A stretch of 45,754 nt of DNA from an uncultured Anaerolineales bacterium (GCA_964415605.1 CAYQBA010000011.1:1-45754); one strand, 5' to 3'. Numbered from the stretch's first letter, positions 1,514 to 34,475 are shown. The notes: generated by a model from the sequence alone, not told the origin. Numbers and translations are program-made.

Positions 1514-2250
1514 TCGGCCCCGACGGGGCCGGCAAGACGACCATCGGCCGGCAGCTCGAGCACGCGCTGCCGATGCCGGCGCGCTACCTCTACATGGGGG
1601 TCAACCTCGAGGCCAGCGGCCTGATGCTGCCGACGACGCGCCTGATGCTGATGCTCAAGCGCGCCCGCGGCGGCCGGCCGGACATGGTGCTCTCCACGGC
1701 GCACGGCGAACGGCGGCCGCAGCCGCGCCACCCCGTCAAGCGCCTGGCCGGACGCGTCAAGTCGGCGGTGCGGGTGACCAACTGGCTGGCCGAGGAGTGG
1801 TTCCGACAGATCGTCGCGTGGGCGTGGCAGCGGCGCGGCTACCTCGTGGTGTTCGACCGGCACTTCTTCGCCGACTACCACGCCCATGACGTGGCGGGCA
1901 ACCACCCGCCGTCGCTGGCCCGCCGGCTGCACGGCGCGGTGCTCCGGCGCTACTACCCCCGGCCGTCGCTGGTGGTGTGCCTCGACGCGCCGGCCGAGGT
2001 GCTGTTCGCACGCAAGGGCGAGGGCACGCTGGCCTGGCTCGAGGCCCGGCGCGCCGAATACCTGGCCCTGCACTCGGCCGTCGACGCGTTCGTGGTGGTG
2101 GACGCCAGCCAGCCGCCCGACGCGGTGCTGCGCGACGTGGTCGCCGCCATCACGGCCCACGTGGGTGACCCCATCGCCGCGGCGTCCACGGCGGGAGGCG
2201 GCGCGGGCGAGCCCGCGCCGGCGAGCCGGAGCGAGGCATGCGCCGGCTGA
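1495..2250 (+). CDS. Small P-loop NTPase, thymidylate/nucleoside-kinase-like
   Basis: The ATG at 1495 gives 'MACVALIGPDGAGKTT' (Walker A). 'LVVFDRHF' is a Walker B-like strand. The C-terminal half of the 25294..26613 product is a clear paralogue. The gene overlaps both neighbours (1495/1513 and 2238/2250). Confidence 0.65.
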   Translation: MACVALIGPDGAGKTTIGRQLEHALPMPARYLYMGVNLEASGLMLPTTRLMLMLKRARGGRPDMVLSTAHGERRPQPRHPVKRLAGRVKSAVRVTNWLAEEWFRQIVAWAWQRRGYLVVFDRHFFADYHAHDVAGNHPPSLARRLHGAVLRRYYPRPSLVVCLDAPAEVLFARKGEGTLAWLEARRAEYLALHSAVDAFVVVDASQPPDAVLRDVVAAITAHVGDPIAAASTAGGGAGEPAPASRSEACAG

Positions 2251-3266
2251 TCAAGGACGCGCTGGCGTCGGTGGCCGGCGGCGAGGCGGCGCGCGCGCTG
2301 GCCGGGTGCCTCGCGCGCTTCGACGACGCCCGGCCGAACGTCGTCCGGGTGCTGACGTACCACCGCGTCGACTGGCCGGGCGCGCGCCTGACCCTCAACC
2401 CCCGCCTGATCAGCGCCACGCCCGACGGGTTCGCGGCGCAGATGGCGACGCTGGCCGCGGGCCACCCGGTGGTGGGGTTGTCCGACCTGCTGGCGGCGGC
2501 CCGGGGCGAGGCGCCGCTGCCCCCGGGCGCGGTGCTGGTGACGTTCGACGATGCGTGCCTGGATTTCGCCGAGCACGCCTGGCCGGTCATGCGGCGCCTC
2601 GGGTTGCCGGCGACGCTGTTCGTGCCGACGGCCTACCCGGACGCGCCGCAGCGTGCGTTTTGGTGGGACCGGCTGTATCATGGGCTGTGGTTTGGGCGGT
2701 TTCCAACCGGCCTCGACATCGATGGCCAGCGGCTGCCGTTGGCGACGGACGACGATCGCGCCAGCGCCTACGATCGCCTCGCCCGCCGTGTCAAGGCGCT
2801 GCCGCATGCGACGGCCATGGAGCTCGTCGACGCGGTGTGCGCGGCGGCGGACCTGGACGGCGGTGGCCCCGAGCCGGCCGTGCTGGGCTGGGCGGCGCTG
2901 CGCGCGCTGGCGGCCGAGGGCGTGGCGCTGGCCCCGCATACCCGCACCCACCCCCTGCTCCAGCGGCTGCCGCCGGCGGGGGCCGAAGCCGAGATTGCCG
3001 GATCGATGGCCGACCTCGCACGCGAGATCGGCGCGTCGCCGCCGGCGCTGGCGTATCCGGACGGTGGGTACGATGCCGGCACCCTGGCGGCGGCGCGGTC
3101 GGCCGGCATCGAGGTCGCGTTCACCACGCGGTCGGGCGTGAACCGGGTGGACCGCCTCGACGCGCCAGGCCGATTGCGGCTGCGGCGGATCAACGTGGGC
3201 CGGCGGGTCACGCCGGCCGTCCTGAAGGCGCGGCTGGTGGCGTGGCCGCTGCGAAGCGCCGGCTAA
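2238..3266 (+). CDS. Polysaccharide deacetylase (NodB-homology, CE4-like)
   Basis: 'VLTYHRV' and 'VLVTFDDA' (the TFDD metal/catalytic motif) are present, along with 'HTRTHPLL' and 'LAYPDGGYD', in the order typical of NodB-domain deacetylases. Confidence 0.8.
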   Translation: MRRLIKDALASVAGGEAARALAGCLARFDDARPNVVRVLTYHRVDWPGARLTLNPRLISATPDGFAAQMATLAAGHPVVGLSDLLAAARGEAPLPPGAVLVTFDDACLDFAEHAWPVMRRLGLPATLFVPTAYPDAPQRAFWWDRLYHGLWFGRFPTGLDIDGQRLPLATDDDRASAYDRLARRVKALPHATAMELVDAVCAAADLDGGGPEPAVLGWAALRALAAEGVALAPHTRTHPLLQRLPPAGAEAEIAGSMADLAREIGASPPALAYPDGGYDAGTLAAARSAGIEVAFTTRSGVNRVDRLDAPGRLRLRRINVGRRVTPAVLKARLVAWPLRSAG

Positions 3267-3283
3267 AGAGGAGCCTCTCCATC

Positions 3284-7248: not shown

Positions 7249-7289
7249 CCCCGGCAGCGGTGCGCCCGAAGGGTGCGCCGCTGCCGGGG
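7249..7289 (+). terminator. Strong intrinsic-terminator-like hairpin between the two tandem paralogues
   Basis: ccccggcagcggtgcgccc (7249-7267), loop gaa, gggtgcgccgctgccgggg (7271-7289). This is a 19-bp stem with two G.U wobbles, followed by the T-containing tail cctgTTaTTggcTTcg. Confidence 0.6.
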
Positions 7290-7326
7290 CCTGTTATTGG
7301 CTTCGCAAGAGATTGAAGGTGACCCC

Positions 7327-10300
7327 ATGCCCTCGGACCATCGCACTTCCCGCTCCGCCGATCGCCGCTCGCTGATCTGCGCGGCGCTTTCCGTGGCCCT
7401 TGCCGTGGCCGCCGCGCTCTCGGCCGGGCCGCCGACGCCCGTGACGGCCTCCACGCCCATCGACGTCGGCTACCGCGACTTCACCTACCCGAGCAACCTG
7501 GCGACGAACGGCGACGCGACCGCCGAGAAGCCCGAGAGCAAGCTGTGGTACAACGACGGGCTCTGGTGGGCGGTGATGTGGAAGACCGCGGCGAGCAGCT
7601 ACCGGATCTATCGGTTCGACGCCGCCACCCAGGACTGGATCGACACCGGCACCAACGTCGACAACCGGGTGGCGTCGCGGGGGGACGTGCTCTGGGAGAA
7701 CAACAAGCTTTACGTGGCGTCGCAGATGGTCGACCTCAACGGTGGGAGCATCGCCTCGGCCGGGCAGCGCGCGCAGCTCTATCGCTACAGCTACGACGCG
7801 GGCACGAAGACCTACGCGCTGGACTCGGGCTTTCCGGTCGAGATCAACGACGCCCGCTCCGAGACCATCGTCCTGGCCCGGGACTCGGCCGGCAAGCTGT
7901 GGATCACCTATACACAGGGCGGGAAGGTCAGGGTCAACCGCTCGCTGAACGGGGACGACGCCTCGTGGGGCACACCGTTTGACCTCGGGACCGCGCACGC
8001 CTCGAACATCAACTCCGACGACGTGTCGTCGATCGTGGCCTACGACGGCAACAAGGTCGGCATCCTCTGGAGCAACCAGTCGGTGGGCTCGGACTTCTTC
8101 TACGCCGTGCACAACGATGGCGACGCCGACACCACGTGGACCGAGGCCACCATCTACACGCCGTCCACCGACGACCACATCAACATCAAGACGCTGCGAG
8201 CGGACAATGCCGGGAACGTGTTCGCGATGTGCAAGACGTCGGCGTCCGCGGCCCTCATCATCCTCCTGAAGTGCGCCGCCGGCACCAACTGCGCATCCCA
8301 GTCCAACTGGTCGGCCTACACGGTGTACACCGGCAACGACGGGAGCCCGACCCGGCCGCAAATGCTTATCGACACCGACAACCGCGACATCTACGTGTTT
8401 GCCAGCATCCAGGTCAACGGCAAGCGCGGCATCCACTACAAGGTGTCGGACCTGGACAACATCGCGTTCCCGTCGGGGAACGGCACCGCGTTCATCCGCC
8501 ACAGCACGAACAACAGCATCAACGACCCGACCACGACCAAGCAAAACGTCAACGGCGCCACCGACATCGTCATCCTGGCCAGCGATACCGGCGCCAACGC
8601 CTACTTCCACAACACCCTTAACATCGGCCCGCCGCCGACGGCGACGCACACGCCGACGTTCGGCCCGTCCCCGACGCCGACGAACACGTTCACGCCGTCG
8701 GTCACGCCCACGCCGTCTGACACCGCGACGGCGACGGCGACCCGGACGCCGACCCCGACGCGGACGCCGACCTCGACGCCGGGCCCGTCCGCGACGCCAG
8801 GGCCGTCGCCGACGCCGACCATCACGCCGACGCCTGCGCCGACGGCGAGCTTCACGGCGGTCCACGACGCGTACGTCAAGAGCTCCTCGCCCACCAGCAA
8901 CTACGGGCTGGACACGTCGCTCCGGCTGCGCAGCGGCGATCCGCTCTACACCAGCCGGCTCAAGTTCGAGGTCACGGGGGTCACGAGCACGATCACCGGC
9001 GCCAAGCTCCGGCTGTTCGTCACCGATGCCGGCCCCGACGGCGGCGCGGTTTACAGCGTCTCCAACGACTACCTGAACACCGGTACGCCGTGGGTCGAGA
9101 GCGGCATCCACTTCAACAACGCCCCGGCGGTCACCGGGTCGCCCCTGAGCACGGCGGGCAGCGTCGCGCAGAACACCTGGATCGAGCTTGACGTCAGCGC
9201 GGCGGTGACGGGGAACGGCACGTTCAGCTTCGCGCTCGTCAGCAATTCGACCAACAGCGTGCTCTACAGCTCGCGCAACGCCGCGACCAACCACCCGGAG
9301 CTCGTGCTGACCCTGGCCGACGTGACGCCGAGCGTGACGCCCACGCCATCGAACACCCCGACGCCATCGAACACCCCGACGCCGTCGTCGACGCCAACCG
9401 AAACCCTGACGCCGAGCGTGACACCCACGCCGTCCGACACGCCGACGCCGAGCGTGACGCCGACGGCGTCGAACACGCCGACGCCGTCGGACACGCCACC
9501 GCCGACCGACACGCCCACCGCAACGCAGACGCCAAGCGTGACGCCCACGCCGTCCGACACGCCGATCCCGTCGGATACGCCGACGGCGAGCGCGACGCCC
9601 ACGCAGGCGCCGATCGTCACGTTCGGCGCCGCGCACGACGCGCAGGTCAAGAGCTCGTCGCCCAACACCAACTACGGCACCGACGCCGCTTTCCGGCTGC
9701 GCAGCGGATCGCCGCTGTACGCCAGCTACCTCAAGTTCGACGTCACGGGGTTGAGCGGTTCGGTGATCAGCGCCAAGATCCGTTTGTTCGTGACCGACGC
9801 CAGCAATCAGGGCGGCGCGATCCGCGTCGTCTCCAACGACTACCTCAACACCACGACGCCGTGGGTGGAGACCGGCCTCACGTTCAACAACGCCCCGACG
9901 ATCTCCGGCACCCCGCTGAGCTCGGTCGGGGCCGTGAGCCAGAACACGTGGGTGGAGTTCGACGTGAGCGCGGCGGTCACCGGCAACGGCACGTACAGCT
10001 TCGGGCTGGACAGCACGTCGACGGACAGCACGATCTACAGCTCGCGCAACGCGACCTCCAACCAGCCGCAGCTCGTGGTCACGGTGGGCGACGTCACCCC
10101 GAGCGCGACGCCGACGCCGTCGGACACCCCGACCCCGTCGAGCACACCCACCGACACCTTGACGCCGAGCGTGACGCCGACACCGTCGGATACCCCGACG
10201 CCGTCCGTCACCCCCACGCCGTCCGACACCCCGCCGCCGAGCGCTACGCCGACCGCGTCGGACACCCCGACGCCGTCGAGCACGCCCTCCGCCACCGCGA

Positions 10301-10893
10301 CCGCCACGAACACCCAACCGCCGACCGCCACGCTGCCGGCGACGAGCACCCCGGCGGCGTCGGTCTTCGCGCCGAGCGACGACGCGCGCGTGGTCAGCGA
10401 CAGCGGTGGCTCGAACTACGGGTCGGCCACCTACCTGCGGCTGCGGCTGGCGGCGTCGCAGGAGTATCAGAGCTTCCTCAAGTTCACGGTCTCCGGGCTG
10501 TCGGGGACGGTCGTCAGCGCCAAGGTGCGCCTGTTCGCCTATGACGGCGGGCCCAGCGGCGGGTCGATCTACCGCGTGGCCGACAACGGCTGGGCCGAGG
10601 GCACCATCACCTGGAACAACAAGCCGGCATTCGACGGCGGCGCGCTGGCGACGGTCGGCAACGCGCCCGACAACACGTGGGTCGAGTACAATGTCACGTC
10701 CGCCGTGACGGGCAACGGCACCTACAGCTTCGGGCTCGCCACCGGGGACAGCAACAGCCTGTACTTCCGGTCCAGGGAGAGCGCGTCCAGCCCGCCCAAC
10801 CGGCCGGAGCTCGTCGTCGAAACGACGACCGGCTATGCGCTGCGTTGGAGCCCGCTCCTACGGCGGCTCGACCATCATCCACCATTGAGGTAA
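7327..10893 (+). CDS. Secreted multidomain protein, paralogue of 4295..7186: the same head + PT linkers + 3 DNRLRE-type modules
   Basis: The start is moved from 7273 to ATG 7327, because the upstream part overlaps the terminator hairpin and GAAGGTGA lies just upstream of 7327. Signal peptide '[22 protein letters not shown]'. The head is collinear with the paralogue ('[23 protein letters not shown]' is identical). DNRLRE modules lie at approximately 8848-9315, 9613-10090 and 10360-10825. Confidence 0.85.
   Translation: [1188 protein letters not shown]
9316..9612 (+). repeat. Coding linker built from degenerate 18-bp 'TPTPS[DNV]' units
   Basis: '[95 protein letters not shown]'. It is collinear with the second linker at 10091-10359. 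Confidence 0.7.
10091..10359 (+). repeat. Second copy of the 'TPTPS[DNV]' linker (coding)
   Basis: '[81 protein letters not shown]'. Confidence 0.7.
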
Positions 10894-10897
10894 CGTC

Positions 10898-11806
10898 ATG
10901 ACCTACATCACCCAGCCGCGCCCTTCGGCCGCGGACAAGCGCGCACGCCTGCGCGCCGGCCTCGCCGGCGCCGCGCCGATTGTCGCCATCGGTGCCCACG
11001 ACGCCATGAGCGCCAGCCTCGTCGAGGGCGCGGGCTTCGACGCGGTGTGGGTCAGCGGCTTCGGCGTGTCGACGATGGGCCACGCCCTCCCCGACCTCAA
11101 CCTGATCACGATGACCGAAGCCCTGGACGCGGCGGTCCGGATCGACGCCGCGACCCGCCTGCCGGTGATCGCCGACTGCGACAACGGGTACGGCGGGCTC
11201 ATCAACGTCGTCCGCACCACCGTGGCCTACGAGCGGGCCGGGATCGCGGCGATCTGCGTCGAGGACAACCTGTTCCCGAAGCGCAACAGCCTGTACCTCG
11301 GCCAGACCCTGCGCGAGCTCATCCCGGTCGACGAGCAGGTCCGCCGCATCCGGGCCGCCAAGGCCGCCCAGACCACCGCCGACTTCGTGTTCATCGCCCG
11401 CGTCGAGGCGCTCATCGCGGGGCACGGCGTGGCCGCGGCCTGCGAGCGCGCCGACGCGTACGCCGACGCCGGCGCCGACGCCATCCTCATCCATTCCAAG
11501 GACAAGACCCTCGCCGAGATCAAGGGCTTCCTCGGCCAGTGGTCCGGCCGCGGGCGCGTCCCCCTCGTCGCCGTGCCGACGCTGTTCCCGGACTTCACGG
11601 CCGAGGCGCTGCACGCCAAGGGGTTCCAGGTGATCATCTGGGCCAACCAGCTCATGCGGGCGTCGGTGAAGGCCATGGAAGACACGCTGGGCGTGCTGGC
11701 GGCCGAGCGTAGGGCCGCCGCGGTCGACCCCCACATCGCACCGGTCAACCACGTCTTCGATCTCGTCGACACGGCGGCGGGCATTGCCCTCGAGGAGCGG
11801 GACTGA
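10898..11806 (+). CDS. pepM: Phosphoenolpyruvate mutase (PEP phosphomutase), isocitrate lyase/PEP mutase superfamily
   Basis: The match to PEP mutase is full-length. Motifs: 'GAHDAMSASLVEGAGFDAVWVSG', 'DCDNGYG' (Asp pair), 'EDNLFPKRNS' (the EDKxFPKxNS signature, not the KRCGH of methylisocitrate lyase), 'ARVEALIAG', 'AGADAILIHSK', 'VIIWANQLMRASV'. GAGGT RBS. The start lies 4 nt after the stop of the preceding giant gene. Confidence 0.8.
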   Translation: MTYITQPRPSAADKRARLRAGLAGAAPIVAIGAHDAMSASLVEGAGFDAVWVSGFGVSTMGHALPDLNLITMTEALDAAVRIDAATRLPVIADCDNGYGGLINVVRTTVAYERAGIAAICVEDNLFPKRNSLYLGQTLRELIPVDEQVRRIRAAKAAQTTADFVFIARVEALIAGHGVAAACERADAYADAGADAILIHSKDKTLAEIKGFLGQWSGRGRVPLVAVPTLFPDFTAEALHAKGFQVIIWANQLMRASVKAMEDTLGVLAAERRAAAVDPHIAPVNHVFDLVDTAAGIALEERD

Positions 11807-11925
11807 CCTACCAGCACGGCCACGGCGTATCCGCGGCGGGCGGCCCGACGTCTTGATACCGGACGGGCGCCCGCCGCGCTTTGTTCCAGACCATTTCGGA
11901 TCCCTTTTCCTCAGGAGCTGTTTGC

Positions 11926-12597
11926 GTGGACCAGACGATTCTCGACAACGTCGCGCGCCCGGAGCTGACGCCGGCCATGATCCTCGTCAGCCTGTCGCTG
12001 GCGTTCGCCCTCGCGTTCCTGTGGGCCACCGTCTACCGCCGCACCCACACCGGCGTCGCGTACACGCGGGGCTTCTATTCGACGCTGATCATCATCGCCC
12101 CGATCGTGGCCATGATCATGATGACCATCCAGAGCAACGTCGCGCTGTCGCTCGGCCTGGTCGGCGCGCTCTCGATCATCCGCTTCCGGACGGTCATCAA
12201 GGACACCAAGGACATGACGTTCCTGTTCCAGTCGGTGGCCATCGGTCTGTGCGCGGGCGCCGGGGCGTGGATCATCGCGCTCGTCGGCACGGGCCTTGTC
12301 GCGGCCATCGTGATCGGGCTGCATGCCATCGGTTACGGCGCGCTCGGGTCGGCGGACTACGTCCTGGTGTTCCGATCGCGCGAGGCCGACCCGTGGTCCA
12401 AGCTGTCGCAGGAGGCGCGCGATCTCGTGGCCTGGAAGCAGCTCCGGGGCGCCACCGACATCGGCGACGACGTCGAGTACACCTTCAACATCCGGCTGGC
12501 GCCCAAGACGGCGCCCGAGCACGTCGTCGGCGCGATCCGCGGCGACGTGGCCCGCGAGGTGACCCTGATCACGCCGGAGAACCACCTTGAGCTCTGA
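11926..12597 (+). CDS. DUF4956-family integral membrane protein
   Basis: GTG 11926 lies 8 nt after AGGAG; the ORF-track start at 11881 is a TTG with no RBS. Four or five hydrophobic helices are visible. The conserved loop 'LSIIRFRTVIKDTKDMTF' is typical of DUF4956, a family usually found beside bacterial VTC-domain genes. Confidence 0.75.
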   Translation: MDQTILDNVARPELTPAMILVSLSLAFALAFLWATVYRRTHTGVAYTRGFYSTLIIIAPIVAMIMMTIQSNVALSLGLVGALSIIRFRTVIKDTKDMTFLFQSVAIGLCAGAGAWIIALVGTGLVAAIVIGLHAIGYGALGSADYVLVFRSREADPWSKLSQEARDLVAWKQLRGATDIGDDVEYTFNIRLAPKTAPEHVVGAIRGDVAREVTLITPENHLEL

Positions 12598-12598
12598 C

Positions 12599-13384
12599 GT
12601 GGCCGGACCCGAGGTCGCCACGCGCCGCGCGCGCGACCTCGGGGTCATGCTGGACCGGTTGGAGGTCAAGTACCGGTTGGAGCGGACGCGCCGGACGGCC
12701 CTCGAGCGCGACGTGCGGGCGTTCATGCAGCTCGACGCCCACAGCCGCCGCGACGGCGGCTACGTGGTGCGCAGCCTTTACCTCGACACCCCGGACTATC
12801 TGGCCTACCACGAGAAGATGGCCGGCGCCGCCTTGCGCCACAAGCTGCGGGTGCGGGTGTACGGTGCCGACCCGGGGCGCGAGTCCCCCTTTGTCCGGCT
12901 CGAGATCAAGTCGCGCGTGTTCGACTTCATCCATAAGACCACCGCGACGGTGGCCTGGGCGGACTATCCCGACCTCATGCGGGCCATCGAGCGCCGGTCG
13001 CTGCCGCCCGCGACGCTGATGGCGGACCCGGGCGTGCGGGCCTTCTTCCGGCTGCAGCGCCAGCTCAACATGGAGCCCAAGGTCATCGTGCAGTACCGCC
13101 GCGCCGCCTACGAGCGCCCGGAGGCCCGCCGGGTGCGCGTCAGCTTCGACGACGAGGTGTTCGCGAGCCGGCACCTCGATCTGTGCGGCCCCCTGGTCGG
13201 CGGGCAGCGCCTGCTGCCCTACGGCTGCGCGATCGTCGAGCTCAAGGCCGACGGCGTGATGACGCGCATCTTCCACGGCCTGATCCACAAGTACGATCTC
13301 CGGCACGAGGCGATCAGCAAGTACTGCATCGCCGTGCGCGCCATGGCCCGGCTCTCGGCCCACAGTCGCGCCGACGGCTCCTGA
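12599..13384 (+). CDS. VTC-domain / triphosphate-tunnel (CYTH-like) polyphosphate-polymerase-domain protein
   Basis: Tunnel-strand 'E.K' motifs are present: 'LEVKYRL', 'RLEIKSR', 'VELKAD'. So are the basic strands 'LRHKLRVRVY' and 'VRSLYLDTPD'. The start is uncertain: TTG 12587, GTG 12599 or ATG 12647, all in frame. Confidence 0.7.
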   Translation: MAGPEVATRRARDLGVMLDRLEVKYRLERTRRTALERDVRAFMQLDAHSRRDGGYVVRSLYLDTPDYLAYHEKMAGAALRHKLRVRVYGADPGRESPFVRLEIKSRVFDFIHKTTATVAWADYPDLMRAIERRSLPPATLMADPGVRAFFRLQRQLNMEPKVIVQYRRAAYERPEARRVRVSFDDEVFASRHLDLCGPLVGGQRLLPYGCAIVELKADGVMTRIFHGLIHKYDLRHEAISKYCIAVRAMARLSAHSRADGS

Positions 13385-13435
13385 TCGCCGGGCGGGATCC
13401 ACCGGCGACGATGCGCAGAAAGGTCTGGTCTTGAG

Positions 13436-16400
13436 ATGTCGAACGGCACCCGCCGCCCGATCGGGCTACGCCGCCTGGCCGCGCTCGGCCGGCGCCTTGC
13501 GCGACCGTTTCAGCGGATCTGGCCGCGGCTGCCCGAGGCCCTGTTCGGCATCCTCGCGGTCGGCATCGTCGGCTTTGCCGCCCTCACCCACTCGACCGCC
13601 ATCGCCGAGCGCGCCAGCCGGTTGGTGACCGGCAACCGCTACCTCGCCTTCGCCGACGGCATGTTGAACCCGTTCCGCGGCGCGCACCTCCTCGTCGACT
13701 CCGGCCTGCCGGTCTACGACCTCAAGCTCGCGCCCGAGAGCATCGCGCGGCTCGAGGACGGGGCCGCCCAGGCGCGCCGGGTCGGCGTGATGAGCGAGGA
13801 GATGCGCGCCTGGGTGCCGGGCACGTTCATCGCCGAGGGCCGGCGCTACCGGGTCGACGTCCGGCTGCGCGGCGACCTCCCGCCGCACTGGGAGGGCGCC
13901 AAGAAGTCGTACCGCATCAAGTTCGACAGCCAGAAGCTCGACGACGACGGCACCATCATCGAAGAGGACATCTTCTTCCACGGCCGGCGGCAGATCAACC
14001 TGATCATCCCGATCGACCGCGACTACGCCGTGTCGCCGTTCGTCGCCGACCTGATGACCGACGAGGGGCTCGTGGTGCCGCGCGGCCAGTTCGTCGTCCT
14101 GCGGATCAACGGTCGCCTGCAAGGCCTGTACTACGAGGTCGAGCAGTTCGACAAGCCGCTGATGGCCGCCTACGACCGGCCCGAGACGACGATCTTCGGG
14201 CAGAACGGCCGGGCCCAGCACTTCGAGCAGTACACCGACCTGGGCACCGGCGTGGCCGCCGACGCCCGTTTCGACATGGGGTCGATCCGCGAGACAGTCG
14301 ACCCGGCCTACGACCTCGGCATGCCGCTCATCGCGCTGCTCAACGCCCACGAGCGCCAGCCCTCGCCCGCCACGTTCCGCCGCGCCCGGGCAGCGCTGGA
14401 CTGGGACAAGTACCTGGCGTTTCGCGCCGTCACGACGCTGCTCAACACCAACCACGTCCGGTTCGGGTCCGACAACCTCAAGCTGTACTTCGACGCCAGC
14501 CGCGGTCTCCTGGAGCCGGTGCCGTGGGACGCCCACCTCGTGCGGATGCCGGTGGAGCCCGGGACCATCGACTTCTGGAACGACCACGGTCCGGACGCGC
14601 TGCAGCGCTCGACGCTCGAGGACCCCGCGCTGCGCCTCCAGCGCAACCGGCTCCTGTGGAAGTGGGTCGGCGACGGCGGCGCGTCGCTCATGCGGCGCTA
14701 CGACGCCATCCACGACCGCGTGCGGCTCCTGGCCTGGGCCGACGTGATGGGCACCCTCGGGCAGGGCTACAAGATGGACGTGTTGCGCCGCGACCTCAAG
14801 CACAACGTCGAGCGGGTGCACAAGGTGCTCGGCCTCTCCAGCGCCAACCTCGTCTACCGCCAGCTTGCCCCGGACCTCGGGGCGATCGATGTCTCCACGC
14901 TGAACTTCAGCGGGATGCGCCTCCAGACCATCACGCTGCACGACAGCACCACGGCGCCGGAGGGGAGCCCGATCGCCGTCACCGACAGCCCGACGCTGAC
15001 GCTGCGCTTCGAGGGCCGGTACTTCCTCGTCGAAGACGTCAACGAGGATGGCGCGATCGATCCCGGCGAGCCGGTGGTCGCCCACGCTCAGGCCGCAGCC
15101 GGCAGCGTGACGTTCGCGGTCGACCGCTGGATCCTGCCCGAGGTGGCCTTCAAGGGCGAGATCATCGGCGAGCGTTACTGGGAGTTCATGGACACCCTTC
15201 AGGGCCGGCGGCACTATCTGGTGCGCGGGCACCTCGCGCCCGCCGAGCGCGACCCGCTGGTGACGCCGCTGCCGGCGATCGACGCCGATGCGGTCAACGC
15301 GGTGACCGGCGCGCCGATGGTCGGCGCCGTCGTCGACCCGTCGACGCCGCCGCCCGTCGACGGGACGATCGGCATCACTGCCTACGACGCCTCCGACCCG
15401 TTCGACGTCGAGGCCCGTTTCCTGACCCGCGACGCCTTCGTGGCGCGCCACCCGCAGTTCCGGCCGATGGCCGGTGATCCCGGCGCCGTCACGCTCGGCG
15501 GGACGGTCGTCATCTCGCGCACCGTGATCGTCCCCGAGGGAACCCGCGTCGTCATCCAGCCGGGCGCCGACATCACGCTGGCGCCGGCCACGAGCGTGCT
15601 GATGTACGGCGGCCTCGAGGCCATCGGAACGCCCGCCGAGCGCATCCGGATCCACGGCGACGCGACCGGCCGGCCTTGGGACGTGTTCGCCGTCGTGCGG
15701 CCGCCGCGGCCGGTGGAGGTGCGCCACACCGACATCTCGCACGGGGGGCAGGGGCAGATCAACGGGATGCTGTTCACCGGCGGCTTCGCGGTGCACAACG
15801 GCGACCTGACGCTCGTCGACGCACGCTTCACCGACATGCAGAGCGAGGACGCCATCAACATCAAGAACGGCCACCTGCAGATGGCCGAGAGCCTGGTGGC
15901 CCGGACGGCCAGCGACGGCATCGACGTCGACTTCGGCACCGGCGAGATCCGCGACAGCGTGTTCGAGGACACCACCGGCGACGGCATCGACCTCTCGGGC
16001 AGCACGCTCACCGTGACCGGCACGCGCGTCGCGCGCGCCGGGGACAAGTGCATCAGCGTCGGCGAGGCGTCGGCCCCGACGATCGTCAACAACGTGCTCG
16101 AGGGCTGCGCCATCGGAATCGCGACCAAGGACCTGTCGGACCCGCGCGTGGCGTACAACACGCTGGTCGGCAACCGCTTGGCCTTGCAAGCCAAGCGCAA
16201 GAAGGCGATGTTCGGCGGCGGGGCCGGGACGTTCGTCAACAACGTGTTCGCCGAGAACGGCGTCATGCTGGAGGAGGATTACTTCTCGCGCGGCCAGGTC
16301 GCCGTCCGCCATGCGCTGGCCGATGCCGAGATCGAACGCTGCGAGGCGTGTCGGGTGGTCGACCGGGTGCCCTTCCGCGACGCCGCCAGCGGCGACTGGC

Positions 16401-16540
16401 GTCTCGCGCCCGACGCGCTGCGCGGGCTGGACGTCGGCACCGAGGTCGTCGAGTGGGCCGTCGGCGCCGACGGGGCCGCGACGGGGCCCGGCGTGTACAG
16501 CCTGGCCGGCGCCGTCGGCCGTGCCGACGCGCCGCGCTAG
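13436..16540 (+). CDS. Membrane-anchored CotH-family atypical kinase with a C-terminal right-handed parallel beta-helix domain
   Basis: An N-terminal single TM segment 'LFGILAVGIVGFAALTH' follows a basic stretch. CotH core motifs: 'YRVDVRLRGDLPPHWEGAKKSYRIKF', 'INLIIPIDRDYAVSPFVADLM', 'VVLRINGRLQGLYYEVEQFDK', 'NHVRFGSDNLKLYFD'. The last roughly 350 aa contain repeated 'DGIDVDFG..EIRDS.F', 'GDGIDLSGS' and 'N.L.G' beta-helix rungs. Confidence 0.85.
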   Translation: MSNGTRRPIGLRRLAALGRRLARPFQRIWPRLPEALFGILAVGIVGFAALTHSTAIAERASRLVTGNRYLAFADGMLNPFRGAHLLVDSGLPVYDLKLAPESIARLEDGAAQARRVGVMSEEMRAWVPGTFIAEGRRYRVDVRLRGDLPPHWEGAKKSYRIKFDSQKLDDDGTIIEEDIFFHGRRQINLIIPIDRDYAVSPFVADLMTDEGLVVPRGQFVVLRINGRLQGLYYEVEQFDKPLMAAYDRPETTIFGQNGRAQHFEQYTDLGTGVAADARFDMGSIRETVDPAYDLGMPLIALLNAHERQPSPATFRRARAALDWDKYLAFRAVTTLLNTNHVRFGSDNLKLYFDASRGLLEPVPWDAHLVRMPVEPGTIDFWNDHGPDALQRSTLEDPALRLQRNRLLWKWVGDGGASLMRRYDAIHDRVRLLAWADVMGTLGQGYKMDVLRRDLKHNVERVHKVLGLSSANLVYRQLAPDLGAIDVSTLNFSGMRLQTITLHDSTTAPEGSPIAVTDSPTLTLRFEGRYFLVEDVNEDGAIDPGEPVVAHAQAAAGSVTFAVDRWILPEVAFKGEIIGERYWEFMDTLQGRRHYLVRGHLAPAERDPLVTPLPAIDADAVNAVTGAPMVGAVVDPSTPPPVDGTIGITAYDASDPFDVEARFLTRDAFVARHPQFRPMAGDPGAVTLGGTVVISRTVIVPEGTRVVIQPGADITLAPATSVLMYGGLEAIGTPAERIRIHGDATGRPWDVFAVVRPPRPVEVRHTDISHGGQGQINGMLFTGGFAVHNGDLTLVDARFTDMQSEDAINIKNGHLQMAESLVARTASDGIDVDFGTGEIRDSVFEDTTGDGIDLSGSTLTVTGTRVARAGDKCISVGEASAPTIVNNVLEGCAIGIATKDLSDPRVAYNTLVGNRLALQAKRKKAMFGGGAGTFVNNVFAENGVMLEEDYFSRGQVAVRHALADAEIERCEACRVVDRVPFRDAASGDWRLAPDALRGLDVGTEVVEWAVGADGAATGPGVYSLAGAVGRADAPR

Positions 16541-16587
16541 CCCCGACGCCACGAGCGCCACGACCAGCCCGGGAAGGCCCATCATCC

Positions 16588-17385
16588 ATGCAAGCGCTCA
16601 TCCTCGCCGGCGGCCTCGGCACGCGGCTGCGGCCGGTGGTCGCGGATCGCCCCAAGTCCATGGCCGCCGTGGACGACCGCCCGTTTCTGGCCTATCAGAT
16701 CGCCGGCCTCCGGCGCTGGGGGGTCGAGCATGTCGTCCTGTGCGTCGGCTACCTCCACGAGCACGTGTCGGCCTATTTCGGCGACGGCACCGCGAGCGGC
16801 CTGCGGATCGACTACTCGGTGGAAGACCGGCCGCTCGGCACGGGCGGCGCCGTCAAGCTCGCCGAGCGGTTTGTCCGCGGGCCGTTCCTGGTGCTCAATG
16901 GCGACACCTACTTCGACGTCGACCTGCGGGCCATGGCGCGGGCGCACCAGGCGCGCGCGGTGCCGGGCGGCGTCAACGGGAACGGCCGGCCGGGCGAGGC
17001 CCACACCGCCGGCCCCCTGGGAACGGTCGCGGTGGTGGAGGTGCCCGACACGCGGGCATTTGGATCGGTGGCGCTGCGGGCGGACGGCCGGATCGAGGCG
17101 TTTCGCGAGAAATCGGCGGATTTGGCACCGGGTTTCATCAACGCGGGTATCTATTGGCTCGAGAAAGACGTTATGAATCACATCCCGTCGGGCCGGGCGG
17201 TGTCGCTGGAGCGCGACGTCTTCCCCGGCCTCGTGGCGGATCGGCGGGGATTGTACGCCTTTCCGGCCGCCGGCTTCTTCGTCGACATCGGCACGCCCGA
17301 CGGCTATGCTGCCTTCATCGCCCATATCCATGCCCAGGGAGCCCATTCGCATGATCATCCGGAGCAAGGCGCCGCTTCGGCTTAG
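16588..17385 (+). CDS. hddC: Sugar-1-phosphate nucleotidyltransferase, D-glycero-D-manno-heptose-1-phosphate guanylyltransferase-like
   Basis: 'MQALILAGGLGTRLRP' (the G-x-G-T-R signature), 'PKSMAAVDDRPFL', 'LGTGGA', 'LVLNGDTYFDVD'. The assignment to heptose rests on the adjacent hddA and gmhA genes. The ORF-track entry 15676..17385 is trimmed to ATG 16588. Confidence 0.65.
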   Translation: MQALILAGGLGTRLRPVVADRPKSMAAVDDRPFLAYQIAGLRRWGVEHVVLCVGYLHEHVSAYFGDGTASGLRIDYSVEDRPLGTGGAVKLAERFVRGPFLVLNGDTYFDVDLRAMARAHQARAVPGGVNGNGRPGEAHTAGPLGTVAVVEVPDTRAFGSVALRADGRIEAFREKSADLAPGFINAGIYWLEKDVMNHIPSGRAVSLERDVFPGLVADRRGLYAFPAAGFFVDIGTPDGYAAFIAHIHAQGAHSHDHPEQGAASA

Positions 17386-18373
17386 CTTTTGCGGCGGCGG
17401 CACGGACGTGCTGCCGTACGCCGCCGAGCAGGGCGGGATCGTGCTCAGCGCCACCATCGACAAGTTCGCCTTCGGGACCCTCCGGACGCGCGCCGATCGC
17501 ACCATCACCGTGCAGTCGCTCGACTACGACATGGTGGCCAAGTACGACCTCGACGACGAGATGCGCTACGACGGCGAGCTCGACCTGGTCAAGGCCACGA
17601 TTCGCACCATGTTCCCGGCCAACGGCCTGGAGCAAGGGCTGGACTTCTTCCTGCACAGCGACGCCCCGCCGGGCTCGGGCCTCGGCTCGTCTTCGACGAT
17701 GGTGGTGGCGCTGATCGGGCTGATCCGGCAATGGCAGCGGCGGCCGCTGACGAGCTACGACATCGCCAAGCTGGCCTACCACATCGAGCGCGAGGAGCTC
17801 GGGATCCGCGGCGGCATGCAGGACCAGTACGCCGCCACGTTCGGCGGTTTCAACTTCATCGAGTTCGGCGCCTCCGCCGTCATCGTCAACCCGCTGCGGA
17901 TCGACCCCGACGTCGTCAACGAGCTGCAGTACCACCTGTTGCTGTGCTACACCGGCCGCACCCGGATGTCGGCCAACATCATCCGGACCCAGGTCGACAA
18001 CTACGTGCGCCAGGAGGCCGACGTGCTGTCGGCCATGGCCGAGCTCAAGCACATCACCATCGAGCTCAAGAACGCGCTGCTCCAGGGGCGGCTCGACGAC
18101 TTCGGAGCGCTGCTCCACGACGCGTGGATCAACAAGCAGCGGCTGGCGAGCCAGATCACGAACCCCGTGATCGACGAGCTGTACGCCACGGCGCGCGCGC
18201 ACGGCGCCCTCGGCGGCAAGATCACCGGCGCGGGCGGCGGCGGCTACCTGCTGCTGTACTGCGCCTTCGACAAGAAGCACATCGTGGCCGCCGAGCTCGA
18301 GAAGCTCGGCGGACAGGTGGTGGAGTTCATGTTCGAGCCCCACGGCCTGCAGACCTGGGAGGTGAGGGCATGA
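17351..18373 (+). CDS. hddA: GHMP-family sugar kinase, D-glycero-D-manno-heptose-7-phosphate kinase-like
   Basis: ATG 17351 follows GGAG. '[19 protein letters not shown]' is the typical HddA N-terminus. GHMP motif II '[17 protein letters not shown]' and the C-terminal '[15 protein letters not shown]' are present. Confidence 0.75.
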
Positions 18374-19056
18374 CGACGTCTGGGTCGACAGGGGGCGTGC
18401 CAGGGACGAACGGGTCCGCGGCGGCGCCGGCCATGGCGGCCGACAGCGACGCCGCGTTCGCGGCGCAGCTGCGGCGGATCTTCGAGGACAGCATGGCCGT
18501 CAAGCGGGCGGTGGTGGACGGGCAGCTGCCGGTGCTGGCCGCCATCGCCCGCCTGTGGGCCGACGCCCTGACGCGGGGCGGCAAGATCCTCCTGTTCGGC
18601 AACGGCGGCAGCGCCGCCGACGCCCAGCACCTGGCGGGCGAGCTCGTCAGCCGCTTCCTCGTCGAGCGGCGCGCACTGGCCGGCATCGCGCTGACCACCG
18701 ACACCTCGATTCTCACCGCCATCGGCAACGACTACGGCTTCGACCGTGTCTTCGCGCGCCAGGTCGAGGCCCTCGGGCGGCCGGGCGACGTCGCGGTGGG
18801 CATCAGCACCAGCGGCCGCTCGCCCAACGTCCTGGCGGGCATCGACGCCGCGCGCGCGCTGGGATTGACCACGGTGGGCTTCACCGGCGCCGGCCGCGAG
18901 GGGCTGGCCGAGCGGGTGGACATCTGCTTCCACGTGCCGTCGCGGCACACCCCGCGCATCCAGGAATGCCATCTCGCGGCCGGCCACGCGATCTGCGAGA
19001 TCGTCGAGCGCGTCTTCAGCGACGCCGGCCACGGGGACGCCGACGGTCGGGCGTAG
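18370..19056 (+). CDS. gmhA: D-sedoheptulose-7-phosphate isomerase (SIS domain)
   Basis: The ATGA overlap joins it to hddA. Motifs: '[21 protein letters not shown]', '[18 protein letters not shown]', '[11 protein letters not shown]', 'IQECHL..GH'. Confidence 0.8.
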
Positions 19057-19100: not shown

Positions 19101-20225
19101 GTGATGCAGCACGGAAAGACGGCCATGCGCGCCGCGACCGCTCCCACGCCCGCCCAGACGGTGGCGCCGCCCCGACCGCGCCTGCGGCCGATCGAGTGGC
19201 CGCTGGCCGTGCCCGTGGCGACCGCGGTCGGGCTCGCGCTCGTCGGCGCGCGCGAGGGCCTCGGCGTGCCGACCGTGCTCGTGGGGTGGATCGGGGCGAT
19301 CTTTGCCGTCTGGAGCGTGGCCTACTGGGGCTTCGTCGGCGCGCGCGGCGCCTCGGTCTACGCCCGGGCCGCGGCGTGGCTGGCGCCGTGGGTGCTGGCC
19401 GTCGCGGCGGTGCTGGCCGTGGCGTGGTGGGCCGACGGCGCCGGCTGGCTGTGGTACCGCCTGACGGGCTACAACCTCACGCCGGCCGAGTCGACGGCGC
19501 AGGCCGCGGCCGCGTCGCGTGCCGCGTTCCTCGATCGCTGGCCCGTCTTCGTCGCCGATGCCGGCGATCCGACGGTCGTCCGGCTGCCCGCCGGCCCGCA
19601 CGTGTTCACGCGCACCGTCGTGGTGCCGCGCGGCGTCGCGCTGATCATCGAGCCGGGCGCGGAGCTGCGCTTCGGCGCGGGCAGATCGCTGGCGGCCTTC
19701 GGCGCGATCCAGGCGCGCGGCACCGCCGAGCGGCCCATCGTGTTCACCGCGCGTCACCCGGCGCTGAAGTGGGGCAGCGTCGCCGTGATCGGCGCCCCCG
19801 CGTCGGCCTTCGCGCATGCCCGCTTCGCCCACGCGCGCCAGGCGAACATCGACGGCATCGAGCTGACGGGCGGCCTGTCGCTCGTCGACACCGACGCCGA
19901 GGTCGCCTTCAGCACCTTCGGGCCGATGTTCGGGAAGGACGCCATCTACGTGCGCGGCGGCGACGTGCGGATCCACGACAATGTCGTGCGCGATGCCTTC
20001 ATCGACGGCATCGACTTCGACGGCGGCCGAGGCGTCGTGCGCGACAACCGGTTCGTCGACTGCGGCGACGAGGGCATCGACCTGAGCGGCGACCTCGTGC
20101 TCGACGTCTTCGACAACACCGTGCTCGACCGCCGCGGCGGCCGCGTCGCGGCCGAGGCCGAGGCCATGGCCACGGCCATCGTGCTGCGCAACACCCTGGG
20201 ACATAGCGCGGCATCGCATCCTTGA
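19101..20225 (+). CDS. Membrane protein with an extracytoplasmic parallel beta-helix domain (paralogue of the CotH C-terminal module)
   Basis: Three or four N-terminal TM helices are visible ('WPLAVPVATAVGLALVG','VLVGWIGAIFAVWSVAYWGF','AAWLAPWVLAVAAVLAVAWW'). 'TRTVVVPRGVALIIEPGAELRF...GTAERPIVF' and 'DGIDFDGGRGVVRDNRFVDCGDEGIDLSGD' are collinear with residues of the 13436..16540 product. The exact start is uncertain (GTG 19101 or ATG 19104). Confidence 0.7.
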   Translation: MMQHGKTAMRAATAPTPAQTVAPPRPRLRPIEWPLAVPVATAVGLALVGAREGLGVPTVLVGWIGAIFAVWSVAYWGFVGARGASVYARAAAWLAPWVLAVAAVLAVAWWADGAGWLWYRLTGYNLTPAESTAQAAAASRAAFLDRWPVFVADAGDPTVVRLPAGPHVFTRTVVVPRGVALIIEPGAELRFGAGRSLAAFGAIQARGTAERPIVFTARHPALKWGSVAVIGAPASAFAHARFAHARQANIDGIELTGGLSLVDTDAEVAFSTFGPMFGKDAIYVRGGDVRIHDNVVRDAFIDGIDFDGGRGVVRDNRFVDCGDEGIDLSGDLVLDVFDNTVLDRRGGRVAAEAEAMATAIVLRNTLGHSAASHP

Positions 20226-20317: not shown

Positions 20318-21529
20318 ATGCGGATCTTGCACATCACGCCGGCGCTGCAGCACCCCACCGTCCGGGGGCCGCATCGCCATTATCACTTTCTGCGCGAGCT
20401 GTCGCCGCGCCATGCCATCACCGGCCTGACGCTCATCCGCAGCGCGGTCGACGCCGGCGCGCTGCGCGAGGTCGGGGCCCATGCCGACGGCATGTTCGCA
20501 TACGACGTCGCCGACGGGACGCCGCTGCCGGGCCTGGGCTGGGCGGCGCGCCTGCCGGGGCTGGGCCCACGCCTCGCGCGGCACCTGCGCGTCCAGGGCG
20601 GGCTGCGCCAGATGCGCGCCACGTACCGCCGATTGGCGGCCAGCGGGCGCTACGACGTCGTCTTGTTTCACGGCAAGTCGGTGTTCCCGGTCGTCGCCGG
20701 CTGCCGGGCGCTGCCGATCGTGGTCGACTTCTGCGACGCCACGTCGATGCGCATCCGGCAGCGCGTCGACGCGGCCGGGCCGGTGAGGCGGTGGCTGTAC
20801 GCCGCCCGGTATGCCCAGGTGCGCCGCCTCGAGCGCCGGCTCGTGGCCATGACGCCGCACCGGGCCTTCATCTCGCCGCGCGACCGCGCGGCGGTGCTGG
20901 GCGACGCCGATGCCTCGCCGATCGTCCCCAACGGGGTCGACCTCGACTACTGGCGGCGCGCCGCGCCGGCCTGGCGGGGCCGTCCGCGCCTGGCGCTGAC
21001 CGGCGTCATGGACTATCAGCCGAACGCCGACGCCGCCACGGCCCTGATCGACCAGGTGCTGCCGCGCGTCCGGGTGCACCTGCCGGACGCCGAGGTCGTG
21101 ATCATCGGGCGGAACCCCGGCTCGGATCTCGTCGCGCGGGCGCGGTACGTGCCGGGGGTCACGGTGACCGGGTTCGTCGACGACATGCGGCCGCTCCTCG
21201 AGCAGGCGTCGGCGCTCGTGGCGCCGCTGCGGTACGCTTCCGGCACGCAAAACAAGCTGCTCGAGGCGAGGGCGATGGCCGTTCCGGTCATCGCGACGAC
21301 CGTGGCGGCCGAAGGCTTGCGGATCGACGGCACCCCGCCGCCGGTGCTGGTGGCCGACGACCCGGCCGGCATGGCCGACGCCTTCGTACGCGTCATCCGC
21401 GAAGCCGCCGTGCGCGATGCGCTCGAGGCGGCGGGGCCGCGTTTCGTCGCCGAGCGCTTCGATTGGGGCCGCAGTGCCGCCCGCCTGGAGGCGATGTGCC
21501 TCGCGGCGGTCGAAGGGGCCGCGGCATGA
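20318..21529 (+). CDS. GT-B fold glycosyltransferase (family 4-like)
   Basis: The N-terminus 'MRILHITPALQHPTVRGPHRHYHFLRELS' is typical. The C-terminal half has 'VIIGRNP', 'VTVTGFVDD', 'APLRYASGTQNKLLEARAMAVPVIAT' (the E-x7-E-like region). Confidence 0.75.
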   Translation: MRILHITPALQHPTVRGPHRHYHFLRELSPRHAITGLTLIRSAVDAGALREVGAHADGMFAYDVADGTPLPGLGWAARLPGLGPRLARHLRVQGGLRQMRATYRRLAASGRYDVVLFHGKSVFPVVAGCRALPIVVDFCDATSMRIRQRVDAAGPVRRWLYAARYAQVRRLERRLVAMTPHRAFISPRDRAAVLGDADASPIVPNGVDLDYWRRAAPAWRGRPRLALTGVMDYQPNADAATALIDQVLPRVRVHLPDAEVVIIGRNPGSDLVARARYVPGVTVTGFVDDMRPLLEQASALVAPLRYASGTQNKLLEARAMAVPVIATTVAAEGLRIDGTPPPVLVADDPAGMADAFVRVIREAAVRDALEAAGPRFVAERFDWGRSAARLEAMCLAAVEGAAA

Positions 21530-34351: not shown

Positions 34352-34359
34352 GGACGGCA

Positions 34360-34368
34360 ATTCTATCA
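34360..34368 (-). promoter_or_regulatory. Candidate extended -10 element (TGaTAGAAT) giving a leaderless or near-leaderless transcript for the 31214..34351 gene
   Basis: On the minus strand the sequence reads ...ccgTGATAGAATtgccgtccATG. The -10 ends 8 nt before the ATG, and no Shine-Dalgarno is present. No convincing -35 was found. Confidence 0.3.
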
Positions 34369-34446
34369 CGGATCGGGGAGACCGCGTGACGGGGCATCGA
34401 GGCGCCTGCCGCCGGAGCGTGCGGAATGCGTTGCTGGCGTGCGGGG

Positions 34447-34475
34447 TTGACAAACGCGCGTGCAAATGTTAAGAT
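34447..34475 (+). promoter_or_regulatory. Near-consensus sigma70-type promoter: TTGACA - 17 nt - TAAGAT with a TGn extension
   Basis: TTGACA is at 34447-34452 and TG at 34467-34468, with one spacer nt before TAAGAT at 34470-34475. The spacer is exactly 17 nt. The element sits in the only AT-leaning patch of the divergent intergenic region. The predicted leader to ATG 34636 is about 150 nt. Confidence 0.55.

Follow-up and report, generated by a model that had tools for sequence, protein, structure and literature searches.

The subject of this report is a group of three adjacent genes in a stretch of 45 754 nucleotides from an uncultured Anaerolineales bacterium (GCA_964415605.1 CAYQBA010000011.1:1-45754), the whole of which was analysed and is referred to below as the window. 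The genes lie on the + strand at positions 11926-16540, are all co-directional and encode, in this order, a DUF4956 membrane protein, a VTC protein and a CotH protein. The trio exemplifies an accessory module that is widely distributed among exopolysaccharide loci and extends across the cytoplasmic membrane. An earlier reading of the window from its sequence alone (the sequence-only reading) had proposed the three genes and their domains. Each gene, and every peptide string quoted from it, was recovered by calling and translating open reading frames (ORFs), and the assignments to DUF4956 (PF16316), VTC (PF09359) and CotH (PF08757) were all above the Pfam thresholds.

The window DNA has a GC content of 68-77%, and real genes were told apart from many spurious ORFs by the GC content at third codon positions (GC3). 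Coding-type values of 0.93-0.96 were obtained for the three genes; long antisense ORFs such as 13466-16585 (-; 1039 residues) and 7294-10317 (-; 1007 residues) failed the same test and were rejected as high-GC artefacts. The start of the DUF4956 gene was assigned to GTG 11926 because its homologues are of about 223 residues and an AGGAG sequence lies just upstream. Depending on the start codon, the VTC gene overlaps the DUF4956 gene by 11 nucleotides (TTG) or is separated from it by 1 nucleotide (GTG 12599); the gap between the VTC and CotH genes is 51 nucleotides.

Architecture of the three proteins

The VTC protein matched PF09359 over residues 24-253 (E = 1.3e-28, 100.6 bits against a 23-bit cutoff) and carries the tunnel strands LEVKY, LEIKS and VELKA (E26/K28, E106/K108 and E218/K220). 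It is a single domain, with neither a hydrophobic segment, an SPX domain nor a fused membrane domain of three transmembrane (TM) helices. A single-sequence search of the PDB with this protein gave no genuine match, and a profile built from 34 homologues matched the yeast Vtc4 catalytic domain (3G3Q) with E = 7e-5. The AlphaFold2 model (predicted local distance difference test, pLDDT, 86.6; predicted template-modelling score, pTM, 0.83) was compared with known structures using Foldseek. VTC subunits accounted for each of the top 13 matches (E = 1.6e-13 to 8e-11, TM-scores 0.58-0.68), Vtc4 being the best; generic CYTH/TTM triphosphatases followed at 6e-7 or worse, about six orders of magnitude weaker.

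Nine residues of Vtc4 are required for polyphosphate (polyP) synthesis, namely K200, R264, R266, K281, Y359, R361, E426, S457 and K458, of which K458 alone differs in the inactive Vtc2 and Vtc3, where it is Ile or Leu (bioRxiv 10.1101/2023.01.27.525886). After conversion of the 3G3Q chain index to native Vtc4 numbering by an offset, direct alignment gave R264=R88, R266=R90, Y359=Y170, R361=R172, E426=E218, S457=S244 and K458=K245; K28 and K108 are the probable equivalents of K200 and K281 from the register of the strands. The prediction that the tunnel residues would be conserved was thus borne out for all nine positions, and the mapped residues are 98-100% conserved among 83 VTC-like proteins from many phyla. 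Judged by alignment, the VTC protein consists of the soluble tunnel domain on its own, its Vtc4-type polyP-polymerase site being complete, and by analogy with Vtc4 it would synthesize polyP from ATP.

The DUF4956 protein (PF16316, E = 4.9e-15, 56 bits against a 30.6-bit cutoff) was predicted from hydropathy and the AlphaFold2 model to have five TM helices (residues 16-40, 48-68, 71-89, 94-111 and 115-134), followed by a C-terminal domain (residues 144-215) of beta-alpha-beta-beta-alpha-beta order, which is ACT/ferredoxin-like and predicted to be cytoplasmic. The model had an overall pLDDT of 68, with values of 50-67 in the TM part and 80-89 in the C-terminal domain. Because residues 37-48 and 86-95 form Lys/Arg-rich loops, the positive-inside rule argues for an N-out/C-in topology, which would put the C-terminal domain as well as the signature loop on the cytoplasmic side. 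The signature residues, S83-I-I-R86-F-R88-T-V-I-K92-D93-T-K-D96, are the best-conserved part of the family: among 81 DUF4956 sequences from many phyla R86, R88 and D96 are invariant (100%) and K92 is 93% conserved, and the universal core comprises G77, G80, S83, R86, F87, R88, T89, K92, D93, D96, G107 and G111. In the clade of the window the mean column identity is 72% for DUF4956 against 45% for VTC.

The sequence-only reading had regarded the first two proteins as a split analogue of yeast VTC. What stood of this is the arrangement, a separate soluble tunnel enzyme beside a membrane partner; the partner itself is unrelated to the VTC channel, having five TM helices rather than three. A DUF202 match was found in none of 31 DUF4956 members (E up to 0.05), and Foldseek gave nothing significant with the DUF4956 model, leaving 7YTJ and 8I6V unmatched and returning unrelated small folds at best (E = 0.04). 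With no sequence or fold similarity to the VTC membrane domain, the term can be retained as a functional analogy only. The candidate assignment of DUF4956 as a homologue of a channel or transporter was dropped for lack of a significant Foldseek match, the model used being moderately confident. The C-terminal domain matched generic ACT/ferredoxin-like folds only. Sub-threshold Pfam MgtC matches were obtained for 24 of the 31 members (best E = 2.8e-4), the window protein itself scoring 17.8 bits against a threshold of 31.4 for Pfam MgtC and 16.5 against 214 for NCBIfam PRK09977, and homologues are annotated as YhiD-like by JGI. From these profile scores DUF4956 looks like a distant relative of the MgtC superfamily (MgtC/YhiD) and not a homologue of the yeast VTC channel.

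The CotH protein (PF08757, E = 2.5e-17, 63.8 bits against 23.8) has its sole hydrophobic segment close to the N-terminus, after a tail with nine Arg/Lys residues. The topology proposed earlier, a single N-terminal anchor with the body outside, was upheld: the N-terminus is predicted to be inside and about 980 residues outside, and a cytoplasmic CotH was not predicted. A basic-then-hydrophobic N-terminal segment was present in 74 of 76 linked CotH ORFs, the two exceptions being truncated, and in a control a comparably hydrophobic stretch was found in just three of 84 VTC ORFs. A juxtamembrane motif, P-x-R-x-I-W-P-R/K (residues 22-29; window 13499-13522), is kept in the clade (L001-L009; loci are numbered with the prefix L). 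A candidate AxA cleavage site at residues 55-57 is unconserved in the homologues. Because the motif is conserved and the AxA site is not, an uncleaved anchor with a functionally constrained tail is suggested, and the conservation of the tail suggests that it contacts a cytoplasmic or membrane partner.

The single CotH sequence matched Bacillus cereus CotH (5JD9) with E = 1.4e-5, and a profile of 30 trio-linked CotH domains spanned the whole of the 5JD9 fold (chain residues 2-347) with E = 1.7e-45. The profile alignment placed the catalytic-loop Asp at 5JD9 D224 (B. subtilis D228), the loop Asn at N229 and the Asp of the PWD motif at 5JD9 D247 (B. subtilis D251). The B. subtilis CotH variants D228Q and D251A are inactive (PMC7821199). 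In the window protein His340 stands in the column of the catalytic Asp, in a loop (N-T-N-H340..N347) that is two residues longer. The description of the protein as an atypical kinase does not carry over as it stands, and the kinase label is unproven for this sequence.

Loop classes were assigned from an alignment; the catalytic position is Asp in 59 of 69 trio-linked CotH proteins and His in the window, in its clade and in a Roseovarius locus. Among 147 sequences, comprising the window protein and its nearest representatives from clusters at 50% identity, His is found at position 340 in 139 (95%), and N347 (97%), D365 (95%), H151 (98%), S158 (99%), R145 (93%) and E236 (95%) are similarly kept. 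Conservation of H340, N347, D365 and the others at 93% or above argues that the change from Asp to His is not decay. The consensus of this subfamily includes the C-terminal beta-helix, which is encoded by a separate gene in L001. By sequence, the window CotH is a member of a large His-type CotH + beta-helix subfamily that is apparently undescribed in the literature searched. Tandem CotH paralogues of about 600 and 920 residues were seen ahead of VTC-DUF4956 in three distant His-type loci (L127 9740-14277, L131 8436-12514 and L134 9779-14271).

Linkage of the genes and the surrounding glycan locus

A scan for VTC relatives using one genome per species gave at least 573 stretches, from which the best 80 loci were kept; partner genes were sought with hidden Markov models in 84 loci. 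DUF4956 was present in 81 of these, usually 0-4 nucleotides from the VTC gene, and a CotH gene was no more than 1.2 kb away in 73, in nearly every case reading in the same direction, as had been expected of a functional trio. The order of the genes is permuted (DUF4956-VTC-CotH, VTC-DUF4956-CotH, CotH-VTC-DUF4956 and CotH-DUF4956-VTC). Several loci without a partner are contig ends; six long loci have VTC-DUF4956 and truly lack CotH, which is kept in about 90% of the assessable loci. The loci come from Firmicutes, Spirochaetes, Myxococcota, Alphaproteobacteria, Acidobacteria, Thermotogae, Caldisericia, KSB1 and two archaeal metagenome-assembled genomes (MAGs), and the VTC matches include a Clostridioides difficile locus (L040). 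The archaeal-binned contigs, L035 (Methanosarcinales MAG) and L043 (Nanoarchaeota MAG), carry the complete trio, for which horizontal transfer or mis-binning is possible.

A second sampling was made by scanning metagenomes from the His-type CotH, starting from an alignment of 15 sequences. Both partners were present in all 25 loci of the window's clade with enough upstream sequence and in 13 of 14 distant His-type loci (23-32% identity) with enough flank. These counts dispose of the idea that three unrelated genes lie side by side by chance in a polysaccharide island: the genes accompany one another in 73 of 84 loci, and in 38 of 39 from the independent sampling, in differing orders, and incidental adjacency is effectively refuted.

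The commonest neighbour of the module, in 30 of 81 loci, is a membrane GT2 synthase of the PgaC/chitin-synthase type; others are HEAT-repeat proteins, GGDEF-EAL proteins, MBOAT and AlgX-like genes, deacetylases and Wzc. Next in frequency, with 14 loci (L061 12896-15064 and 13 other Firmicute loci), comes an exported protein of about 720 residues without a Pfam match, which may correspond to the DUF4832-type gene of Whitfield et al. In two loci that lack CotH the pair is followed by other genes: a beta-helix protein and then a phosphate-selective porin O/P homologue in L027 (4271-6987), and a Cthe_2159 carbohydrate-binding protein and then a calcineurin-like phosphoesterase in L039 (4519-7503). 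ORFs of about 380 residues just upstream of many diderm modules were considered as one family and rejected as such.

Although it is true that no function had been established in the literature searched, the co-occurrence of the genes, which the sequence-only reading had not credited, was already published (PMC7112168; bioRxiv 10.1101/2024.04.20.589940). Among the accessory genes that Whitfield et al. (2020) listed as conserved at Gram-positive pel loci are cotH, DUF4956, DUF4832 and a gene for a poly-phosphate polymerase; these authors proposed that CotH might regulate Pel through protein phosphorylation (PMC7112168). The gene set has also been reported for Clostridium perfringens NELoc-2 and the Streptococcus milleri group, and in a 2024 preprint on S. 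intermedius the three proteins were modelled with the same domains and topology (bioRxiv 10.1101/2024.04.20.589940). The set is thus known; new here are the His-type CotH with its beta-helix, the Wzy-type heptose/phosphonate locus and the Chloroflexi-like lineage.

In the window the trio lies within a single co-directional surface-glycan locus of the Wzy/Wzz type, extending from about 1 kb to 29.5 kb according to Pfam and NCBIfam scans (Table 1). Besides the trio it contains a polysaccharide deacetylase, a 2-hydroxyacid dehydrogenase, two large CBM96/DNRLRE proteins, a phosphoenolpyruvate (PEP) mutase-like gene, a nucleoside triphosphate (NTP)-transferase, an HddA-like kinase, a GmhA-like isomerase, a membrane protein with a beta-helix, GT4 transferases, a Wzz/P-loop protein and a Wzy_C protein. 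The NTP-transferase, HddA-like and GmhA-like genes follow the trio in the same order in L001-L003. The block from DUF4956 to GT4 was found again in three divergent contigs, one of which has Wza/Wzc/Bac_transf upstream and not the PEP mutase. Pel-specific and DUF4832 families were absent from Pfam scans of the larger ORFs of the window, several of which had no match at all.

Table 1. Features of the three genes and of the surrounding glycan locus, in window coordinates
Feature	Position	Strand	Remarks
Shine-Dalgarno-like AGGAG	11913..11917	+	8 nucleotides upstream of the DUF4956 GTG start
DUF4956 gene	11926..12597	+	223 residues, GTG start, Pfam PF16316
DUF4956 signature loop	12172..12213	+	IIRFRTVIKDTKD; cytoplasmic end of TM3 and TM3-TM4 loop (predicted)
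VTC gene	12587..13384	+	265 residues, Pfam PF09359; start TTG 12587 or GTG 12599
CotH gene	13436..16540	+	1034 residues, Pfam PF08757 and C-terminal Beta_helix/NosD
CotH cytoplasmic N-tail (predicted)	13436..13528	+	Residues 1-31, 9 Arg/Lys, zero acidic residues
CotH signal-anchor/TM helix (predicted)	13529..13585	+	Residues 32-50, sole hydrophobic segment
CotH kinase-like domain	13685..14911	+	Residues ~84-492, His-type subfamily
CotH non-canonical catalytic loop	14453..14476	+	H340-V-R-F-G-S-D346-N347; N347 = loop Asn
CotH D365, PWD motif	14528..14530	+	Equivalent of the metal-binding Asp, B. subtilis D251
CotH right-handed beta-helix (CASH/NosD-like)	15785..16243	+	Residues 784-936, PF13229 and PF05048
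PEP-mutase-like gene	10898..11806	+	Directly upstream of the trio; same position in L001, L002
NTP-transferase	16588..17385	+	Nucleotide-heptose gene just downstream of the trio
HddA-like GHMP kinase	17306..18373	+	Nucleotide-heptose gene
GmhA-like SIS isomerase	18370..19056	+	Nucleotide-heptose gene
Membrane beta-helix protein	19101..20225	+	After the heptose genes; kept in L002, L003
GT4 glycosyltransferase	20318..21529	+	After the heptose genes; kept in L002, L003
Polysaccharide deacetylase	2238..3266

The PEP-mutase-like gene scored 256 bits with TIGR02320, below the cutoff of 319.55. A D-2-hydroxyacid dehydrogenase gene (3278-4225, +) is conserved in the same loci, with counterparts of the two genes at 7228-9110 in L001 and at 972-1937 and 8029-8937 in L002; a phosphonopyruvate decarboxylase was not seen. 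The phosphonolactate route consists in the reduction of phosphonopyruvate, and the two genes may serve phosphonate decoration of the glycan, possibly of the phosphonolactate type.

Several other genes of the window deserve mention. Three very large secreted-looking proteins (4295-7186, +; 7273-10893, +; 31214-34465, -) each have two or three CBM96/DNRLRE modules spaced by long Pro/Thr/Ser linkers, and NHL/beta-propeller repeats are present in one of them as well; in L001 and L002, too, the module is flanked by CBM96 genes. An 854-residue protein (39056-41620, -) about 22 kb from the trio contains a beta-propeller phytase domain (PF02333, E = 5e-94) and is extracellular and phosphorus-related. 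Weak ATP-grasp (CPSase_L_D2) and HPr-kinase-C-like matches were obtained for 21846-23552 (+) and for L008 5973-8477, this gene being found in five loci of the clade. The paralogous-looking proteins of about 400 residues at 1063-2250 (+) and 25294-26613 (+) gave a weak C-terminal thymidylate-kinase-like (P-loop) match only, and in L001 an APH-type kinase gene lies beside the deacetylase in the equivalent position.

A proposed phosphate route across the membrane and its alternatives

A complete polyP site, a near-inseparable membrane partner and an extracytoplasmic enzyme are kept together through rearrangement of the genes, and the most economical reading of this is that a product made in the cytoplasm crosses the membrane and is consumed on the other side. 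By analogy with Vtc4, this product would be polyP and its user the CotH-fold enzyme. In the explanation that we regard as the best, and hold tentatively, the VTC protein, docked on DUF4956, would use ATP to make polyP on the cytoplasmic side of the membrane; DUF4956, probably in oligomeric form, would convey the polyP chain, or phosphoryl groups from it, to the outer side; and the anchored CotH-beta-helix enzyme would transfer phosphate outside onto a nascent heptose-containing polysaccharide or onto surface proteins. The conserved His in place of the catalytic Asp could act as a base or form a phospho-His intermediate. The putatively glycan-binding beta-helix of CotH and the glycan-locus context point to a polysaccharide acceptor in this clade. 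PolyP itself is a conceivable, purely conjectural phosphoryl donor for CotH.

The CotH of the spore coat acts within the mother cell, and its gene sits with those of its substrates, cotB and cotG; the Zetaproteobacterial stalk gene sfz6, which contains CotH, belongs to a cluster that usually adjoins an ATP/ADP antiporter gene (PMC8250860). Both arrangements would fit a dedicated donor supply for exported CotH proteins. A more far-reaching form of the proposal, which we consider doubtful, is that VTC-DUF4956 is a prokaryotic polyP synthase-exporter apart from PPK1 and PPK2, convergent in its logic with eukaryotic VTC and built with an unrelated, MgtC-like membrane subunit, and that exported CotH proteins are polyP-powered ecto-phosphotransferases, those of the His type acting through His on surface polysaccharides.

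A number of points weigh against coupling by way of exported polyP. The conserved basic residues of DUF4956 lie at the membrane-cytoplasm interface and not along the helices, and the protein resembles neither the VTC channel nor any solved transporter, its TM bundle being modelled with a pLDDT of 50-67. The window CotH, without the catalytic Asp, may not be a phosphotransferase at all. Since six long loci have the pair and not CotH, VTC-DUF4956 has an independent function. In none of the 84 loci were VTC, DUF4956 and CotH fused with one another, and a porin beside the pair (L027), taken up as support for export in diderms, was dropped because it was seen in no other locus. Experiments on any bacterial member were not found in the literature searched, where two papers on bacteria name a 'VTC domain protein' in tables only, and the authors of the S. 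intermedius study suggested that polyP stays in the cytoplasm, no other VTC subunits being present (bioRxiv 10.1101/2024.04.20.589940).

In a first alternative polyP is itself the exported product, an anionic matrix component that complexes a partly de-N-acetylated (cationic) polysaccharide, while CotH and the beta-helix tether or trim the polyP, or modify the matrix independently, and do not draw on polyP as phosphoryl donor. It accords with the near-obligate association of VTC with DUF4956 (81 of 84 loci) and the six long loci without CotH, with the polysaccharide deacetylases that recur nearby (in the window, L001 and L007), with the association of the module with Pel loci and with the polyP secretion reported for some bacteria (PMC10653871). 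Both the export and the cationic nature of the window glycan are putative, and the retention of CotH in about 90% of the assessable loci, with its metal-binding residues, argues that catalysis is coupled to the pair; we consider this explanation unlikely.

Equally unlikely in our judgement is that polyP is kept inside, DUF4956 being an MgtC-like anchor or regulator by which the polymerase is localised or gated at the membrane, and the pair providing local ATP or inorganic phosphate buffering for exopolysaccharide synthesis, with CotH using another donor or being merely co-regulated. This was the preference of the S. intermedius authors (bioRxiv 10.1101/2024.04.20.589940), and it agrees with the MgtC matches in 24 of 31 DUF4956 members and the shared architecture, with a cytoplasmic ACT-like domain of the ligand-binding type and with the failure of Foldseek to find a channel-like fold match. 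It leaves unexplained why an extracytoplasmic enzyme is kept adjacent and on the same strand through permutation of the gene order across phyla, archaea included. Moreover, bacteria generally have polyphosphate kinase (PPK) enzymes for cytoplasmic polyP already.

Less probable again is a third possibility, that the His-type CotH-beta-helix protein does not transfer phosphate and is instead a pseudokinase fold with some other activity (nucleotidyl transfer, glycan cleavage by the beta-helix) or a role in polysaccharide binding or scaffolding. High conservation of H340, N347, D365, H151, S158, R145 and E236 in the 147 sequences instead fits a working active site, and 59 of the 69 trio loci have an Asp-type CotH protein in this place. 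On the other side stand the absence of the catalytic Asp from the window protein and from 95% of the subfamily, at the position where D228Q inactivates B. subtilis CotH (PMC7821199), the conservation of the beta-helix/NosD/pectate-lyase-like domain and the replacement of CotH by beta-helix or carbohydrate-binding proteins in L027 and L039.

If the proposed coupling of VTC, DUF4956 and CotH is real, two questions become directly testable: by what route bacteria export polyP, and from where enzymes with a kinase fold that work outside the cytoplasm obtain a phosphoryl donor without ATP being present there. The module is common, being found in gut Firmicutes, pathogens, many environmental phyla and some archaea, and from its constant location in biofilm and surface-polysaccharide loci it probably shapes matrix chemistry. 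The His-type CotH + beta-helix subfamily is a large group with an active site unlike that of the only characterised CotH, and its members would be mis-annotated as 'CotH kinase'.

Comparison with known systems

The yeast VTC complex (Vtc4/Vtc3/Vtc1; 3G3Q, 7YTJ and 8I6V) shares with the window VTC protein the tunnel fold and all nine residues, K458 included, and in both cases the enzyme has a membrane protein for a partner, at the same face of the membrane. The yeast subunits have an SPX domain and a fused three-helix DUF202 domain, neither of which is present in the window protein, and the membrane partner in the window is a separate, unrelated protein of five TM helices. Inositol-pyrophosphate sensing is accordingly not expected here, unlike in yeast, and translocation is predicted by analogy only.

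MgtC/SapB/YhiD proteins have in common with DUF4956 five TM helices, modelled here with low confidence, and a cytoplasmic ACT-like domain; the profile similarity is weak but consistent. The R-x-R-T motif of DUF4956 stands at the place of what we take to be G-L-R-T in MgtC. DUF4956 differs in having a signature of its own and an obligate VTC partner, and to our knowledge MgtC is not known to transport anything.

The Bacillus CotH kinase (5JD9/5JDA) resembles the window CotH in its Pfam domain, in the alignment of the full fold and in the loop Asn and the PWD Asp. Where the former has the catalytic Asp D228, the latter has His340 in a loop longer by two residues. The window protein is also membrane-anchored and predicted to be extracytoplasmic, whereas Bacillus CotH acts in the mother cell; it has about 540 additional C-terminal residues, including the beta-helix; and its neighbours are VTC, DUF4956 and glycan genes rather than cotB and cotG.

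CotH has been described as a distant relative of Fam20C. The xylose kinase Fam20B and POMK are kinase-fold enzymes of the secretory pathway that phosphorylate glycans with ATP imported into the lumen of the Golgi or endoplasmic reticulum. They offer the likeness of a kinase-like fold outside the cytosol and a precedent for a glycan, not a protein, as acceptor. In contrast to the donor proposed here, they use ATP brought into the lumen, and their relationship to the window CotH was considered here at the superfamily level.

In gene content the closest likeness is to the accessory set of Gram-positive pel loci (in S. intermedius, SIR_1594, SIR_1593 and a third gene beside them), where these three families likewise lie next to one another, reading in one direction, within an exopolysaccharide locus. 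The predicted topology is also the same, with a secreted CotH, a cytoplasmic tunnel enzyme and a multi-TM protein with a C-terminal ACT-like domain. The hosts differ, those of the pel genes being Firmicutes and Actinobacteria and that of the window a high-GC Chloroflexi-like organism. The window locus is of the Wzy/Wzz type with nucleotide-heptose and PEP-mutase genes and without a recognisable pelDEADAFG; its gene order is DUF4956-VTC-CotH, and its CotH is of the His type with a fused beta-helix, whereas that of the pel loci is of the Asp type with FN3.

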